DNA from: an uncultured bacterium
Lineage (GTDB): Bacteria > CAYJRR01
Assembly (NCBI GenBank): GCA_964372275.1
Contig: CAYJRR010000024.1
Span: forward strand, 1-40,894
DNA length: 40,894 bases
Direction: 5' to 3'
In this document: piece by piece, positions 34,471 to 40,273 of the stretch
Layout of the letters: each line of letters opens with the position of its first letter
How positions within the stretch are numbered: the first letter of the stretch is position 1
Notes under the pieces: model-generated
What the model was told of the DNA's origin: nothing
Seen by the model: the letters and a program-made list of their open reading frames with translations, nothing else
The model's database searches: none
Translations under genes and position numbers: made by a program

Positions 34471-35637
34471 CTACCAGAGGAGCTGCACCCCGAGGGTGAA
34501 GCCGTCGGCGCGCTCTTCCTCGGTGACGCGGTCCTCGCCGCGGTACTGGGCGGAGATCTTCAACGAATCGATTCGTTCATCCTGGTGGCGGGGGTACCAG
34601 GTCAGCCCGGCCTCCTGGTATTCGACGCGCCGCGGCGAGGTCTCCCGGTCTTCGACGGTGGCCCCGATCCGTGCCGCCGGCTCGAGCCCGAGGGGGAGGA
34701 GCCAGGCCGCTTGCAGGTAGCCGCCGCTCGCCGCCTCCGGCCGGTCGAGAAGACGGTCCCTCGCGTGCCGGCGGAGCAGCTCCCCTTGCAGGTAGGCCCC
34801 CCGGTAGGCGGCGCGGAGGCTCGCCGCGAGGCGCAGGTCGTCGACCCGCCGGCCGCCGAAGCCGGTCTCGTCGTAGCGCATCGTCGGGTGGTAGAGCAGC
34901 CCGGCGCCGATCCCGACGCGAAGCCCGCCGCGCTCGTGGTCGAACTCGTCGAAGGGGAACGCCCCGAGCGGATGGAGGTCGGCCCGGAGCGCGTAGGCGA
35001 TCCCGCGCTCGTCGGATGGCGACTCCGACAGCCGATCGCCGTTGAACACCCCGACCGCGGCACGGACGACCTCCGAGTCGGGGAGGTAGGTGAGGAGCAG
35101 GCCGTGGTCGGGCCCGCTCAGGAAGGCGTCGTTCGCGCCGCTCCGGGTGCGGAAGAGGAGCGCCGTCGCCGGGCTCTGGTGCTGCGCCGTGAACGGGACC
35201 CGCATCCGGCCCGCCTTGGCCAGCAGGCCGTCGAACGGTCGGTAGGCGACCGACGCCTCCTCCAGGGCGACCCCGAGCACGGGCGAGGTCTCGGTCTCGA
35301 CGGCGTCGACGTTGCCGTCTTCGTCCCCGTCGACGGCGGTGACCCGCGCGACCGCGTCGAACGAGCCGTCGCCGACGATTGCGTGCACCACGAACGAGAA
35401 CGCCTCGAACGGCGTGCCGTGGATCTCGATCCCCGCCGCGCTCGACTCGAGCCCGGCCTGCCACCGATCGCGCGGCGTCGCGTCCGGCAGGTGCGTGACG
35501 CCGAACGTCGGCTGCAGGTAGCCGGAGGCGGTCACCGTACGCTCGACGCCGGCCGCCGGAGCGCCCGGCTGCGCAAAGGCCGTCGCGCGCGCCACCACGA
35601 CCGCGACGAGCACGGCGAGGGGGACGCGGCGGTTCAC
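34471..35637 (-). CDS. Outer-membrane porin (OprO/OprP-like beta-barrel)
   Basis: GTG 35637 overlapping the upstream TGA; signal ending AFA; LEEASVAYRP...AGRMRVPF, GVFNG, GGYLQAAW, GLTWY; C-terminal GVQLLW beta-signal. Confidence 0.85.
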   Translation of the reverse strand: MNRRVPLAVLVAVVVARATAFAQPGAPAAGVERTVTASGYLQPTFGVTHLPDATPRDRWQAGLESSAAGIEIHGTPFEAFSFVVHAIVGDGSFDAVARVTAVDGDEDGNVDAVETETSPVLGVALEEASVAYRPFDGLLAKAGRMRVPFTAQHQSPATALLFRTRSGANDAFLSGPDHGLLLTYLPDSEVVRAAVGVFNGDRLSESPSDERGIAYALRADLHPLGAFPFDEFDHERGGLRVGIGAGLLYHPTMRYDETGFGGRRVDDLRLAASLRAAYRGAYLQGELLRRHARDRLLDRPEAASGGYLQAAWLLPLGLEPAARIGATVEDRETSPRRVEYQEAGLTWYPRHQDERIDSLKISAQYRGEDRVTEEERADGFTLGVQLLW

Positions 35638-36890
35638 GGGTAGGAGAGCCCGACCGGGCCGAAGGCGACCGAGGTCATCCCTTCGACGCCGGTCTGGTAG
35701 GAGGGGCCCGCGATCAGCCAGCCGGTCGAATCGGCGGAGTAGCGGTCGGGCCGGTGGGCGTGGACGAACGGAAAGGGCCCGATCGCCGTCGACGGATCGG
35801 TCCAATCGACATAGCGGGTCGGCGCCTCGCGCTCGTCGACCACCTCGATCCTTCGCCCGAGGCGCTCCGCGGCGCGCTCGCTGGCGGTCCAGATCCGTGG
35901 ACTTCCGATCCCCTCCTCCCCGATCGAGGCGATCACTGGACGGCCCGCCCGCGTGCCGACGAGGAACAGCGCCCCCTTCCACCGGTGGACGCCGGCCGGC
36001 TCCATCCCCGAGACCTCCAGCCGGCGCGCCTGGGAACGGTCGAACAGCAGGAGCTGGCCCGATTCGAGGAGCCCCGCCACCAGGCCGTGCTCGTCGGCCT
36101 GGAGATAGCCCCTCACCGCGTCCCGGCCCAGGTGCACCGTTCCCCCGGGAATCTCGACCGCCGCCGTCTCGCGCGCGCCGGCGTCGACGAATCGCGCCTC
36201 GGCGCGCCGCGTCCCGCCGCCGTCGAGGTAGGTTGCCACGTAGAACCCCTCGCCGTCCGCCTGGCCCGTCCCCGCGATCCGCACGTCGGTCGCGTCGGCC
36301 GGCTGGAACTCCCGCGCCGCGAGGTATCGATCGGAGAGGAGATCGACGACGACCAGGTAGGGCCTGGGATCGGAGACGGCGCGCACGATCGCCGGCACCG
36401 TGACGCGCGACGGCGAATCGTCGACCCAGGGAAGGACCCCCTCGAAGAGGAGGTCGGCGTTGCTCGACGGATCGCGGTCGAGAACCCGGCGGCAGGCGCC
36501 GCTCGCGCCGTCGACGCGCACGAGCGCATCGCCGGACCAGTACCAGGCGGCGCGCTCCACCTCGCCGATCCACCCGTGCACGCCGCGGCTCTCCCCCTTG
36601 TGACCGTCGCATCCGCCCGACCAGCCGCCGTCGCGGAAGCCGACGAAGGCGGTCGCCTCGGCGCGGTCGGGGGCGCCGTAGAGGACGTAGAGGTTCCCCT
36701 CGCGGTCGGACACCGGCGGCAGGAGTCGGAGCGGCGCCCGTCCCGGAACGTCGGCGACGAAGCGGAACGTCCCCCATTCGCCGGTCTCCAACGGCGGAGC
36801 GCAGGCGGCGAGGACCGACGGCGCCGCCACCGCGAGCGCGGCGGCGCGGGCGACGCGGCCGATCGATCCAACGCGGGAACGGGCGGCCAT
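35634..36890 (-). CDS. Hypothetical beta-rich lipoprotein
   Basis: Lipobox LAAC; predicted all-beta (propeller-like) pattern; starts immediately after the upstream TAG. Confidence 0.75.
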   Translation of the reverse strand: MAARSRVGSIGRVARAAALAVAAPSVLAACAPPLETGEWGTFRFVADVPGRAPLRLLPPVSDREGNLYVLYGAPDRAEATAFVGFRDGGWSGGCDGHKGESRGVHGWIGEVERAAWYWSGDALVRVDGASGACRRVLDRDPSSNADLLFEGVLPWVDDSPSRVTVPAIVRAVSDPRPYLVVVDLLSDRYLAAREFQPADATDVRIAGTGQADGEGFYVATYLDGGGTRRAEARFVDAGARETAAVEIPGGTVHLGRDAVRGYLQADEHGLVAGLLESGQLLLFDRSQARRLEVSGMEPAGVHRWKGALFLVGTRAGRPVIASIGEEGIGSPRIWTASERAAERLGRRIEVVDEREAPTRYVDWTDPSTAIGPFPFVHAHRPDRYSADSTGWLIAGPSYQTGVEGMTSVAFGPVGLSYP

Positions 36891-39053
36891 CTAGTACTCC
36901 GCCGTGAAGGTGAGGGCGTAGTAGGCGCGCTCGGCCCCGGCGGCGTCGAGGTAGCGCTGACGGAAGACGAGCGGCGTGAAGGAGTAGGCGTACTCGGCGT
37001 ATTCGTCGCCGGCGGTCTCCGGATCGTCGGGAACGGCGGGCGCGTCGCCGCTGAAGGTCGCGTCGGAGCCGATCGCCAGCGAGACCCCCTTCCCCCAGTT
37101 CTGGCCGACGTTCACGCCGACGGCGAATCCGGCGACCTGGATCTCGCCCCCGAGGTAGACGTCGAGGTTCATCGTCTCGGCGTTGGTCACGCTGTCGGCG
37201 ACGGTGAGGGAGAAGCCGACCTTCCCGACGTCGCTGACGCGGTACTCCCCCGGCGAAGGGAAGACCAGGTCGTCCGTCGAGAGCCCCTGGCCGAACAGGT
37301 CCTTGAAGGTGGTCGGATAGCTGGTGGGATCTCCGACCACCGCCGGGACCGGGATCGTCGGCAGGTTCCCGACCGCCGCCGCCATCGCGTTGTAGCGATG
37401 CGTCGACCAGAGGGTGACCTGCCCGTCGACCGGGACGAAGACGAGCATCTTGTGGCCCGAACCGCCCAGCTTGTTCGCCGGATCGAGGGTCTCGTAGTCG
37501 TAACGGTGGAAGCAGCCGTAGGAGACGACGACCGCGCCGTAGCGGTCGCCGTAGAGATCCGGGTCGGGGGTGAGCGCGTAGCGCGCGCCGACCGAATACG
37601 AGGTCGAGCGGGCCTGCGATCGGCTCACGGCCCGCGAGAGTCCCTCCTCGATCTTCGCGTTGAACACGTCGAGGAACCCCTGCTCGACCGCCAGGTCGAT
37701 CCCCATCCGCATCGAGACGGTGTCGGTGACGGTGGAGCCGGTGTTGGTCGAATCGCCGAAGTAGAGGAACGGCACCCCCTCGCTCCGGTAGCGGTAGTAG
37801 GGCGGGAACTGGACCGCCATCGTCGGCACCACCGGTCCGGGCACCGCCACCGGAGCCGAGACCAGCCGCGCCGACGGCGAATCGCCGTCGAAGTCGGCGG
37901 CCGCGATCCGCGTGGGGAGGGCGGAGACGTCGAGGGAGCCCTGCTGCACGATCGCCAGCGGTTGCGAGCCGGAGCCGGCGAGGATCTTCACCGCGCGCCC
38001 CTCCTCCAGCAGGAGCACCCGTCCGTTCTCGCCGACCGAGAGCTTGCTGGCGGAAAGGTCGAGCGTCTTCTTCCCGACGACGGTGCGTCCGCGCTCGGCG
38101 AAGCCGTCCTTCATCGCGTAGACGATCGCGGCGTCGTTCCCGCAGGAGAAGACGTTGCAACCGGCGTCGTGCAGCGCGACCGCCTCGTCGACGCCGTCGC
38201 CGTCGAGGTCGGCGGCGGCCACGCGGAACAGCGTGTCGTTCGCCGTCCCCCCGAACGACCCGGGCTCGTTGGGGGCGGGGACGGCGTTGATCGCCACCAC
38301 GAACGACCAGCCGCTCGCCGAAAGGAGCACCACCGGCTCGGCCAGCCCATCGCCGTCGACGTCCCCGGCGGCGAGGTCGTCGCCGGCGTAGCCGGCGCCG
38401 AAGTGGTGGTAGTCGCACGCGCCGGTCGACAGGCGGCAGACGGCCACCTCCGCCGAGGCCGACAACGCCAGCAGCTCGTCCTGCCCGTCGGCGTCGACGT
38501 CCCCGGCGGCGACCGCCACCGGCTCGAAGCCGACGTCGACCAAGTCGAGCGTACCTTCGGAGAGCACCGAGACCCGGGTCTCTCCCTGGATCGCGACCGC
38601 CGTCTCCTCCGGGCGCGAACCCTTGAGGTTTCCACCCGCAACGTCGACCGGCGGCTCGGTCCCGACGTTCCAGGAGGTGGCGTATCCGACCGTCCCGGCC
38701 GCATCGTGCGCGTAGCCGTCGGCGTAGAAGGAGCCCTGGTAGGCGGTGGCGTCGACGACGGCGACCTCGCGGTCGAGCGCGAAGAAGTGCTCGCTCCCGA
38801 TGGGGGAGATCGACTCGTACGGGCCCGCGCCACACCGGTCGATCTGGCAGACCTGGTCGATGCAGGCCTCCGTCGAGGCGCAGTCGGCGTCGGAGGCGCA
38901 GCCGACCTGGTCGCTCCCCCAGATCTCCGAGCCGGGGCCGTCGTCCGGTCGCGCGTAGCCCTCGCCTCCGCCCGGCACGAAGCAGCCGCCGACGCCGGCA
39001 GCGCTCGCCACCGCCAGCAGGATCGTTTGCAGCCGCCTGATGCGACCCGACAC
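36891..39053 (-). CDS. Lipoprotein with Cys-rich module, FG-GAP/VCBS repeats and an uncharacterised C-terminal domain
   Basis: GTG 39053 after GGAGG; lipobox VGGC; CASDADCASTEACIDQVC; repeats AAGDVDADGQDE, AAGDVDGDGLAE, AAADLDGDGVDE, AAADFDGD. Confidence 0.85.
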   Translation of the reverse strand: MSGRIRRLQTILLAVASAAGVGGCFVPGGGEGYARPDDGPGSEIWGSDQVGCASDADCASTEACIDQVCQIDRCGAGPYESISPIGSEHFFALDREVAVVDATAYQGSFYADGYAHDAAGTVGYATSWNVGTEPPVDVAGGNLKGSRPEETAVAIQGETRVSVLSEGTLDLVDVGFEPVAVAAGDVDADGQDELLALSASAEVAVCRLSTGACDYHHFGAGYAGDDLAAGDVDGDGLAEPVVLLSASGWSFVVAINAVPAPNEPGSFGGTANDTLFRVAAADLDGDGVDEAVALHDAGCNVFSCGNDAAIVYAMKDGFAERGRTVVGKKTLDLSASKLSVGENGRVLLLEEGRAVKILAGSGSQPLAIVQQGSLDVSALPTRIAAADFDGDSPSARLVSAPVAVPGPVVPTMAVQFPPYYRYRSEGVPFLYFGDSTNTGSTVTDTVSMRMGIDLAVEQGFLDVFNAKIEEGLSRAVSRSQARSTSYSVGARYALTPDPDLYGDRYGAVVVSYGCFHRYDYETLDPANKLGGSGHKMLVFVPVDGQVTLWSTHRYNAMAAAVGNLPTIPVPAVVGDPTSYPTTFKDLFGQGLSTDDLVFPSPGEYRVSDVGKVGFSLTVADSVTNAETMNLDVYLGGEIQVAGFAVGVNVGQNWGKGVSLAIGSDATFSGDAPAVPDDPETAGDEYAEYAYSFTPLVFRQRYLDAAGAERAYYALTFTAEY

Positions 39054-39265
39054 GGGACCTCCCGGGGCGGTCCGCCGCCCGCGGTCGATCCAGCAAGGCG
39101 CGTGCCCCGACTTGCCGGTCGGCCAGGCGCGAAAATCTTCGGGAGTTCGACTCGTTGCGTGACCGACGCCGCGGGCCGATCGGCCGCGGTTGGGACATCG
39201 ATGGGCCACCGGGTGGTTCGGTATTCATTGGTAGGTCGGCGGCGGCGGGTGTAAAGGAGGCGCCC

Positions 39266-40273
39266 ATGCGGCGTTCTCGGATGATCGGCGTCGGGGCCCA
39301 CGCCCCGGCCAAGGTGCTGTCGAACCACGACCTCGAGCGGATCGTCGACACCAACGACGAATGGATCACCACCCGCTCGGGGATCCGGGAACGGCGCATC
39401 GCCACCGAGGCCGAGACGACCTCCGACCTGGCGGCCGCCGCCAGCCGCGGCGCCCTGGAGATGGCCGGGATCGGGCCGGGAGAGGTCGACCTGATCGTCC
39501 TCGGCACCGCCACCCCCGACATGCCGCTCCCCTCCACCGCCTGCCACCTGCAGCGCAAGATCGGCGCGAAGAGGGCGGCGGCGTTCGACGTGTCGGCCGG
39601 CTGCTCCGGCTTCCTCTACGCGATGGCGGTCGCCGACAACTTCGTGAAGACGGGCCACGCAAAGACGGCGCTGGTGGTCGGGGTGGAGATCCTCTCCAAG
39701 TTCATCAACTGGAAGGACCGCACCACCTGCATCCTGTTCGGCGACGGCGCGGGGGCGGTCGTCCTGCGCGGCGAGGAGGCGCCGGCCCACGGCGCGGGGA
39801 CGCGGCCGACCGGCGTGCTGTCGACGCACATCCACTCCGACGGCGAGGGCTGGAACCTGATCATGATCCCCGGCGGCGGGACGCAGCATCCCCCGTCGGC
39901 GCGCACGCTCGACGAAGGGCTGCACACGATCCACATGCAGGGGAAGGAGACGTTCAAGGTCGCGGTGAAAAGCCTGGCCGAGGTGGCGGGCGAGGCGCTG
40001 GCGGCCAACGGCGTCTCCAAGGACGACGTCCAGCACGTGATCTCGCACCAGGCGAACTCGCGCATCATCCAGGCGGTCGTCGACCGGCTGGGGCTCGACG
40101 AGAAGCGGGTGCACGTCAACCTCGACCGCTACGGCAACACCTCCGCCGCCTCGATCCCGATCACGCTCGACGAAGGGGTTCGCGGCGGACGGGTGAAGGA
40201 GGGCGAGCTGATCCTGATGACCGCCTTCGGCGCCGGGTTGACCTGGGGATCGGCGCTCGCCACCTGGGGATAG
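39266..40273 (+). CDS. fabH: 3-oxoacyl-ACP synthase III
   Basis: ATG after AAAGGAGG; WITTRSGIRERR, AGCSGF (Cys), LFGDGAGA, HQAN, YGNTSAASIP, GAGLTWG. Confidence 0.97.
   Translation: MRRSRMIGVGAHAPAKVLSNHDLERIVDTNDEWITTRSGIRERRIATEAETTSDLAAAASRGALEMAGIGPGEVDLIVLGTATPDMPLPSTACHLQRKIGAKRAAAFDVSAGCSGFLYAMAVADNFVKTGHAKTALVVGVEILSKFINWKDRTTCILFGDGAGAVVLRGEEAPAHGAGTRPTGVLSTHIHSDGEGWNLIMIPGGGTQHPPSARTLDEGLHTIHMQGKETFKVAVKSLAEVAGEALAANGVSKDDVQHVISHQANSRIIQAVVDRLGLDEKRVHVNLDRYGNTSAASIPITLDEGVRGGRVKEGELILMTAFGAGLTWGSALATWG

Follow-up and report, generated by a model that had tools for sequence, protein, structure and literature searches.

A family of FG-GAP lipoproteins with a duplicated C-terminal domain and two amphipathic hairpin segments, possibly aerolysin-like pore formers

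The stretch of DNA analyzed here, which we call the window, is 40,894 nucleotides long and comes from an uncultured bacterium (assembly GCA_964372275.1, contig CAYJRR010000024.1). Near one end it encodes a predicted lipoprotein of 720 residues, in which an FG-GAP beta-propeller is followed by a C-terminal region of about 330 residues with no match in Pfam or NCBIfam. This C-terminal domain is best read as a tandem duplication of a module of about 165 residues, with one hairpin-length amphipathic segment in each copy, because the two halves align collinearly over their full length and the order of structural elements matches. Our reading of the protein, to which we give a probability of roughly 45%, is that it is a lipid-anchored, propeller-targeted, aerolysin-like pore former contributing four strands per protomer, with two neighboring genes that would serve for its display, restraint or export.

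Architecture of the lipoprotein

The gene lies within a longer open frame of 772 residues. A GGGAGG stretch precedes the GTG at 39053, which is the likely start, and the resulting 720-aa form is entry P0002 of the protein collection. Amino acid (aa) numbers below follow the 772-aa frame unless domain residues or the 720-aa form are named. The parts follow one another as signal peptide with lipobox, Cys-rich module, FG-GAP propeller and tandem C-terminal modules:

36891..39209, minus strand: lipoprotein open frame of the open reading frame (ORF) list, 772 aa
36891..39053, minus strand: lipoprotein gene, 720 aa, likely GTG start at 39053, stop TAG at 36891-36893
38982..39053, minus strand: predicted signal peptide and lipobox ending in the putatively lipidated Cys, aa 53-76, with Phe after the Cys
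38832..38900, minus strand: Cys-rich module with five near-invariant Cys (C52, C58, C64, C69 and C74 of the 720-aa form), from the alignment of relatives
37815..38762, minus strand: FG-GAP beta-propeller region, from Pfam and DxDxDG calcium-type motifs, borders approximate
37371..37880, minus strand: C-terminal module 1, domain residues 1-170, aa 444-613, with PPYY, hairpin 1 and two long strands
37794-37805, minus strand: PPYY, aa 469-472
37596..37751, minus strand: predicted hairpin 1, 52 residues, amphipathic with Ser/Thr-rich flanks, domain residues 44-95, aa 487-538
37314..37334, minus strand: GDPTSYP, between the modules, aa 626-632
36894..37370, minus strand: C-terminal module 2, a repeat of module 1, domain residues 171-329, aa 614-772
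37065..37196, minus strand: predicted hairpin 2, 44 residues, amphipathic and Gly-rich, domain residues 229-272, aa 672-715

The lipobox reads LLAVASAAGVGG followed by C, at aa 64-76. The strict lipobox pattern is present in 20 of 34 relatives; nine more show, by eye, a hydrophobic stretch leading to a Cys, and the other five are N-terminally truncated. With its signal peptide, lipobox and invariant Cys, the protein is predicted, from the pattern only, to be a bacterial lipoprotein. The Cys-rich module that lies between the lipobox and the propeller has the consensus DCxxGExCxxGVCQMxRC and is probably a disulfide-knotted spacer; it gave a weak match to Dumpy_DPY (E 0.028), under the Pfam cut-off. 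The propeller repeats score above the Pfam cut-offs for both PF13517 (38.3 bits, cut-off 26.9) and PF01839 (32.6 bits, cut-off 22.1), and the region contains three DxDxDGxxE motifs and one DFDGDS. An earlier note, made by a reader of the sequence alone, had described a lipid-anchored, calcium-binding propeller fused to an unclassified domain, and the lipobox, the Pfam matches, the DxDxDG motifs and the absence of a Pfam or NCBIfam match for the domain agree with that description. The PPYY motif that it placed after the FG-GAP repeats and the GDPTSYP core that it placed between two amphipathic segments were both located in the translation. GDPTSYP is among the few motifs common to both subfamilies of the family described below, and its G183, Y188 and P189 are invariant or nearly so in the domain alignment.

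Two amphipathic segments of conserved pattern and length

The segments themselves lie where the earlier note had put them. Segment 1 (DSTNTG...GARY) covers aa 486-544, at 37578-37754 where the note had given about 37578-37757, and segment 2 (FSLTVA...TFSG) covers aa 666-721, at 37047-37214, an exact match. Averaged over the family (127 sequences), hydropathy alternates with a period of two residues in just these two segments. The strongest period-2 windows of the domain are at aa 494-510 and 678-694 (best 13-residue windows), and the strongest of the whole protein falls in hairpin 2; in two sets of 2000 shuffles, this maximum was reached 41 times for the single sequence and 42 times for the 127-sequence profile. 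Read from the sequence, the apolar face of each hairpin is made of two runs of 6-7 residues at alternate positions. The flanks are rich in Ser and Thr, with fractions of 0.50 and 0.41 around segment 1 and 0.29 and 0.24 around segment 2, compared to 0.15 for the whole domain.

The lengths of the segments vary little: 118 of the 127 sequences have a segment 1 within three residues of its median of 52 aa, and 113 have a segment 2 within three residues of its median of 44 aa. The sequence of the segments varies more than that of the core, with column entropies of 2.65 and 2.52 bits against 1.83-2.11 bits. The pattern and length of the segments are thus under selection, and their exact sequence is not. 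A conserved pattern with a drifting sequence is what would be expected for strands with one face toward lipid and the other toward water. Both alternating segments are also retained in a distant subfamily with less than 23% identity in the domain, so that an amphipathic, alternating hairpin with Ser/Thr-rich surroundings is predicted twice per protein in both subfamilies.

Structure model and internal duplication

We modeled the C-terminal domain only, with AlphaFold2 and a 37-row alignment. The model has a pTM of 0.71, with 115 residues at pLDDT 90 or above; the part modeled with confidence is all-beta and has strands 13-17 residues long, and there are almost no helices around the two segments. 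Values of pLDDT below 50 occur only at domain residues 44-95 and 229-272, which are hairpins 1 and 2. The earlier note had named burial of the segments in a confident globular fold as the outcome that would speak against its proposal; instead, these segments are the only parts that AlphaFold2 does not pack with confidence.

The order of elements is identical in the two halves of the model: strand, strand, segment, strand, short helix, long strand, long strand, giving each module the strand order b1-b2-[hairpin]-b3-b4-b5. When half 1 was aligned to half 2 with hhalign, using the 127-sequence profile, the score was 41.9 (probability 89%, P 2e-6) over 134 collinear columns; 60 column shuffles scored 12.2 +/- 2.6 with a maximum of 21.0, and the reversed control scored 31.5. 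For the distant subfamily alone the halves scored 22.6, with 40 shuffles at 12.9 +/- 2.3 and a maximum of 18.1, and comparisons of halves across the subfamilies gave 24.1 and 24.8 (scores without shuffle controls). The duplication would be older than the split between the subfamilies.

Aerolysin-type toxins have one hairpin per protomer, and MACPF/CDC and gasdermin proteins have two, a background against which the earlier note had set its pair of hairpins. The two conserved amphipathic segments of hairpin length stand, but the pair is very probably not of the MACPF/CDC or gasdermin kind. With one module, of modeled aerolysin-type strand order, repeated in tandem, the count is two times one, a hairpin for each module, and not two hairpins of a single fold.

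Resemblance to aerolysin-type pore formers

Searched as a single sequence against the PDB, the domain gave chance matches only (antibody chains at E 0.18-0.42 and a superoxide dismutase at E 2). A profile built from both subfamilies and compared with 177,635 PDB sequences gave three matches at E 10 or below, namely two entries of Cry78Aa (7y79, E 0.0014, and 7y78, E 0.0051) and CEL-III (1vcl, E 0.16), all of them aligned to hairpin 1. The C-terminal domain of Cry78Aa is described as aerolysin-type, with five strands and a membrane-spanning region between strands 2 and 3; that region has alternating residues and Ser/Thr patches, and the topology is given as common to aerolysin-type toxins (PMC9363482). 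From the sequence, the stretch of Cry78Aa that aligns to hairpin 1 appears to be this membrane-spanning region. The aligned stretch of CEL-III is residues 301-367 of domain 3, the part that becomes the pore barrel (PMC10377782). As the same source describes the structure of domain 3 as not common to the pore domain of LSL, the CEL-III match is a likeness of pattern. Module 2, searched in the same way, matched only Toxoplasma perforin-like protein 1, at a chance-level E of 1.4, and this candidate was set aside.

Two further comparisons point in the same direction. The Pfam-named neighbors of the domain in a protein language model are clusters of Aerolysin, ETX_MTX2 and monalysin, with scores of 0.87-0.88 for the whole domain and 0.86-0.88 for module 2 alone. 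In structural alignments, eight of 39 rows are pore formers by title, the rows spanning model residues ~1-170: parasporin-2, epsilon toxin, a Bombina aerolysin-like protein, pro-monalysin, the aerolysin prepore, LSL, a Bacteroides putative pore-forming toxin and the lysenin pore. LSL is present in both structural-alignment lists, and four more rows (2d42, Cry23Aa1, the Salpingoeca lectin 7qe3 and HA-70) are proteins that we take to be aerolysin-like as well. The three lines (PDB profile, language model, structural alignment) are weak, and they agree on aerolysin/ETX-MTX2 and not on MACPF or gasdermin. The domain probably works like, and descends from, aerolysin-type modules, although membership in that family is not established.

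Several other likenesses were considered and rejected. Weak Pfam rows for Fil_haemagg_2 (in 8 of 37 members), Ala_racemase_C and MspA were judged to reflect composition. A sub-cut-off ETX_MTX2 match in one sampled genome (E 4.3e-4; genome G068, L040:1085-1848) turned out to be a long coding stretch of DT/SV dipeptide repeats and not a toxin gene, and the window's own genome has no match to ETX_MTX2 (PF03318). The C-terminal domain was also considered as a monomeric outer-membrane barrel bearing a C-terminal signal, but its last residues vary within the family (Tyr here) and the confident core is not a barrel.

The protein is most readily compared with the aerolysin/ETX-MTX2 toxins (1uyj, 2ztb, 6lhz, Clostridium perfringens enterotoxin, monalysin, 7y79), with which it shares Ser/Thr-rich flanks, alternation of polar and apolar residues, a separate N-terminal domain that would serve for binding and, as modeled, a long-stranded module of the order b1-b2-[amphipathic segment]-b3-b4-b5. 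It differs from them in the tandem module, which would give two hairpins per protomer, in being a predicted lipoprotein, in having an FG-GAP propeller in the place of the binding domain, and in being encoded in a dedicated cassette, next to genes for a propeller lipoprotein and a porin-like barrel. The aerolysin family usually has its binding domain ahead of the pore module, as in the trefoil-bearing Cry78Aa, BinB and Cry35 (PMC9363482). The lectin-pore hemolysins (CEL-III 1vcl, LSL 1w3a, and Cry78Aa, BinB and Cry35) likewise have a carbohydrate- or receptor-binding domain ahead of the pore domain, but theirs is a beta-trefoil, whereas the one here is a calcium-motif FG-GAP propeller.

Distribution of the family

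A HMMER search of 1.84 billion representative proteins found 166 relatives of the domain at E 0.001 or below. A word-indexed search found 34 relatives of 626-733 aa, with the same layout and aligned end to end; in the source records, relatives are named only "hypothetical protein". The family is thus nameless in its sources and has no Pfam or NCBIfam model. Twenty-six genome loci were collected, all from metagenome bins, most of which are titled Myxococcota, Polyangia, Polyangiaceae, Nannocystales, Nannocystaceae or Deltaproteobacteria. Several cassette-bearing bins are labeled "uncultured Enterobacterales", "Enterobacteriaceae" or "Rickettsiales"; these labels look wrong, because the corresponding rows sit among Myxococcota rows in the tree.

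We also sampled 301 genomes from the phylum of one carrier. Twenty-five of them match at E 1e-5 or below, about 15 with the main family and about 10 with the distant subfamily, while a search of 60 unrelated bacterial genomes gave no match. One copy is present in the genome from which the window comes (4.64 Mb, 94.6% complete). Among the species genomes compared, this genome has no relative closer than "same domain", yet the relatives of the protein are in Myxococcota bins. Four metagenome runs of the DNA type, from two studies, contain the stretch or part of it, and there is no RNA run among the listed runs.

The distant subfamily has open frames of 833-1091 aa and is represented by 12 loci (L028-L039) in genomes G095, G107, G112, G125, G155, G225, G235, G245, G267, G300 and G325. 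FG-GAP repeats precede the domain in all ten members scanned, and in most of the 12 N-termini a hydrophobic stretch runs up to a Cys, after which comes a Gly/Ser/Asp linker. Since this subfamily retains the propeller, both segments and lipoprotein-like N-termini, the joining of a propeller, a doubled module and a lipid anchor in one protein appears to be old and constant. Genome G107 has two copies about 185 kb apart, and a gene for a PKD-domain protein is just downstream in two of the loci (L034 and L036).

A three-gene cassette

Two further genes follow the lipoprotein gene on the same strand:

35634..36890, minus strand: second gene, 418-aa lipoprotein, predicted beta-propeller, its ATG directly after the TAG of the first gene
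34471..35637, minus strand: third gene, 388-aa predicted outer-membrane barrel of the phosphate-porin O/P type, its GTG overlapping the TGA of the second gene (GTGA)

The absence of a spacer between TAG and ATG at 36890-36893, together with the GTGA overlap at 35634-35637, fits translational coupling of the three genes. The model of the 418-aa lipoprotein is a confident beta-propeller (pLDDT 89.5) whose fold matches are generic propellers, including BamB, BtuG1 and BtuG2; a PDB profile search with it gave nothing at E 1 or below. The third protein matches the Porin O/P model PF07396 at 22.4 bits (cut-off 20.9, E 8.7e-5), which is above the cut-off but marginal, and it has a signal peptide (cleavage between ...ARATAFA and QP) and a C-terminal Trp (...GVQLLW). 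No match to any of the three proteins was found with PADLOC, and a scan for promoters and terminators gave nothing above shuffles.

Among the ORFs in the last ~15 kb of the window, only the three cassette genes have relatives in the 26 loci (in 26, 21 and 18 loci, respectively), with three loci ending too early for the presence of partners to be judged. A gene for a FabH-type 3-oxoacyl-ACP synthase III (39155-40273, plus strand), divergent and upstream, is not conserved beside the cassette elsewhere. Five main-family loci (L008, L010, L016, L017 and L020) have neither partner downstream; in four of these the available DNA extends for several kb past the gene, and two of the five (L008 and L016) are copies in one bin. 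These partner-less copies look like secondary copies, because they are scattered inside the main clade of a quick tree that was used solely to place them. In the distant subfamily, tblastn found no cassette partners at the 12 loci, and the neighborhoods are varied.

In the 301-genome sample, 12 genomes have all three genes, and three have the main-family gene without partners. The propeller lipoprotein was found in those 12 genomes and not in the remaining 289, and its gene is in each case the immediate neighbor of the FG-GAP gene. Strong orthologues of the porin also number 12; they come from this same set of genomes and are likewise adjacent. Because the lipoprotein and the strong porin orthologues are confined to genomes with an adjoining FG-GAP gene, the cassette is a dedicated unit, seen only in Myxococcota. 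Porin paralogues of about 30% identity occur away from the cassette in 44 further genomes of the sample, suggesting that the cassette porin is a specialized branch of a wider myxobacterial porin family.

The arrangement calls to mind the BSAPs of Bacteroidales, which are described as antibacterial pore formers whose genes adjoin genes for outer-membrane surface molecules (PMC4999547; 2026 bioRxiv preprint). BSAPs, like MACPF/CDC and gasdermin proteins, have two membrane hairpins per protomer but a different fold, to which neither sequence nor fold comparison linked the protein studied here. In those systems the pore-former gene lies beside genes encoding a substitute for the surface target, whereas the lipoprotein encoded here is no stand-in for a widespread surface protein. 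Target replacement of this kind was rejected for the lipoprotein at this sampling, given that it was found only beside the FG-GAP gene (12 of 301 genomes, 0 of 289 others). For the porin it is possible, given the paralogues in 44 further genomes.

Proposed mechanism and alternatives

In the pore-former reading, the C-terminal region of the protein would consist of tandem aerolysin-like modules, each with one pre-insertion hairpin packed loosely on a core of long beta-strands. The lipid anchor would hold the protein in or on the outer membrane or its vesicles, and the calcium-type FG-GAP propeller would take the role of the lectin or receptor domains of aerolysin-family toxins. Binding to the target surface might lead to side-by-side assembly of protomers, whereupon both hairpins of each protomer would swing out and give four strands each to a transmembrane beta-barrel. 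The target would most likely be the membrane of another cell, prey or competitor, and the propeller lipoprotein and the OprP-like barrel may display, restrain or export the protein at the outer membrane of the producer. A bolder version of this reading, which we consider unlikely, is that the family is a new class of aerolysin-type weapon, lipid-anchored and contact-dependent, in predatory Myxococcota, in which the propeller picks the target, the tandem modules double the barrel size per ring, and the partners carry the protein to the surface or to vesicles and block self-insertion.

A number of results weigh against pore formation of the aerolysin type. Foldseek, the fold search that the earlier note had proposed, gave no match for the domain model in the PDB at E 0.001 or below, and no aerolysin-clan Pfam model (Aerolysin, ETX_MTX2 or BB_PF) matched in 37 family members at E 1 or below, or in 12 distant members at E 5 or below. 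ETX_MTX2 (PF03318) is above its cut-off in none of 401 sampled genomes of the phylum. The PDB profile matches are limited to a compositionally biased hairpin and could reflect pattern and not ancestry, and the language-model neighbors, with scores below 0.9 and low recognition, are leads only. The period-2 signal alone is modestly significant (p about 0.02), and part of the repeat signal is hairpin composition, because the reversed-sequence control reached 31.5. The known aerolysin-type toxins are, to our knowledge, secreted soluble proteins with one hairpin, and not lipoproteins. Finally, a dedicated pair of outer-membrane partners fits a machine of the producer's own envelope equally well.

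In such a machine, the lipoprotein would oligomerize and each protomer would insert its two hairpins into the outer membrane of the cell that makes it, forming a channel or anchor that works with the partners in uptake, secretion or display. CsgG, whose lipid-anchored protomers each contribute two beta-hairpins to an oligomeric outer-membrane barrel, shows the principle, but its core is alpha/beta whereas the core here is all-beta and aerolysin-like, and no CsgG Pfam match was found in the window's protein or in 37 family members. This possibility draws on the lipobox, found in every family member whose N-terminus could be read and in most of the 12 distant ones, on the coupled reading frames (TAG then ATG; GTGA), and on the restriction of the propeller lipoprotein and the porin orthologues to the same 12 of 301 genomes; propeller lipoproteins that partner outer-membrane barrels are also known, and BamB, BtuG1 and BtuG2 are among the fold matches. 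Against it, the 12 distant loci have the propeller and both hairpins, but no partners by tblastn and different neighborhoods, and four main-family loci with ample downstream DNA also lack the partners. All of the weak outside likenesses, moreover, are to toxins that attack foreign membranes, and extracellular proteins are where calcium-motif FG-GAP propellers and disulfide-rich modules are typically found. We regard this explanation as improbable. It is also improbable, if a little less so, that nothing inserts at all and that the domain serves an integrin-like surface adhesin as a beta-rich stalk or as a binding domain; the segments would then be flexible Ser/Thr/Gly-rich surface loops, or else strands whose packing requires a complex, for example with one of the partners. 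In integrins an FG-GAP propeller precedes the beta-sandwich domains of the leg; the propeller here is like that of integrin alpha in its FG-GAP repeats above the Pfam cut-offs and its DxDxDG calcium-type motifs, but it belongs to a bacterial lipoprotein, and the domain model and searches show no Ig-like leg domains after it. Consistent with a stalk are the lack of any significant fold or family match, a period-2 signal only modestly above shuffles, a low pLDDT that may reflect flexibility or the shallow alignment of 37 rows, and the weak hemagglutinin-repeat matches in 8 of 37 members (best E 5.1e-5), as in Gly/Ser/Thr-rich beta adhesins. Plain loops, however, would not be expected to combine a drifting sequence with strict alternation and a length conserved in 118 and 113 of the 127 sequences, nor to keep the pattern down to identities below 23% and the same position in the strand order of both repeats, and the sole PDB profile matches of the domain are to membrane-inserting parts of pore formers.

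A single two-hairpin fold of the MACPF/CDC or gasdermin kind seems to us very improbable. Two hairpin-length amphipathic segments per protomer are what such proteins have, and the one PDB match of module 2 was a perforin-like protein, at chance level. Here, however, the segments belong to two homologous repeats, almost no helices surround them in the AlphaFold2 model, and the structural-alignment rows are of the aerolysin type and not MACPF/CDC. No MACPF, thiol-cytolysin or gasdermin Pfam match was found in the window's protein, in 37 family members or in 12 distant members; gasdermin is in none of the fold-match lists, an absence that does not exclude it.

Implications

In the collection of papers searched, none combined FG-GAP with aerolysin, or FG-GAP with pore-forming toxin and beta-propeller, and other literature queries brought up no related work. 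Even on a cautious view, the result should be useful for annotation, because the family has lacked a name and a Pfam or NCBIfam model: it defines a domain that is conserved and duplicated, and a cassette of three genes seen only in Myxococcota. Were the envelope explanation true, the family would represent a new kind of outer-membrane channel built from a lipoprotein. If the protein is instead the pore former that we favor, aerolysin-type proteins would gain a two-hairpin protomer that arose by duplication, a lipid anchor, a propeller as binding domain and an outer-membrane partner pair, and myxobacterial predation and competition would gain a protein pore former with a targeting domain.

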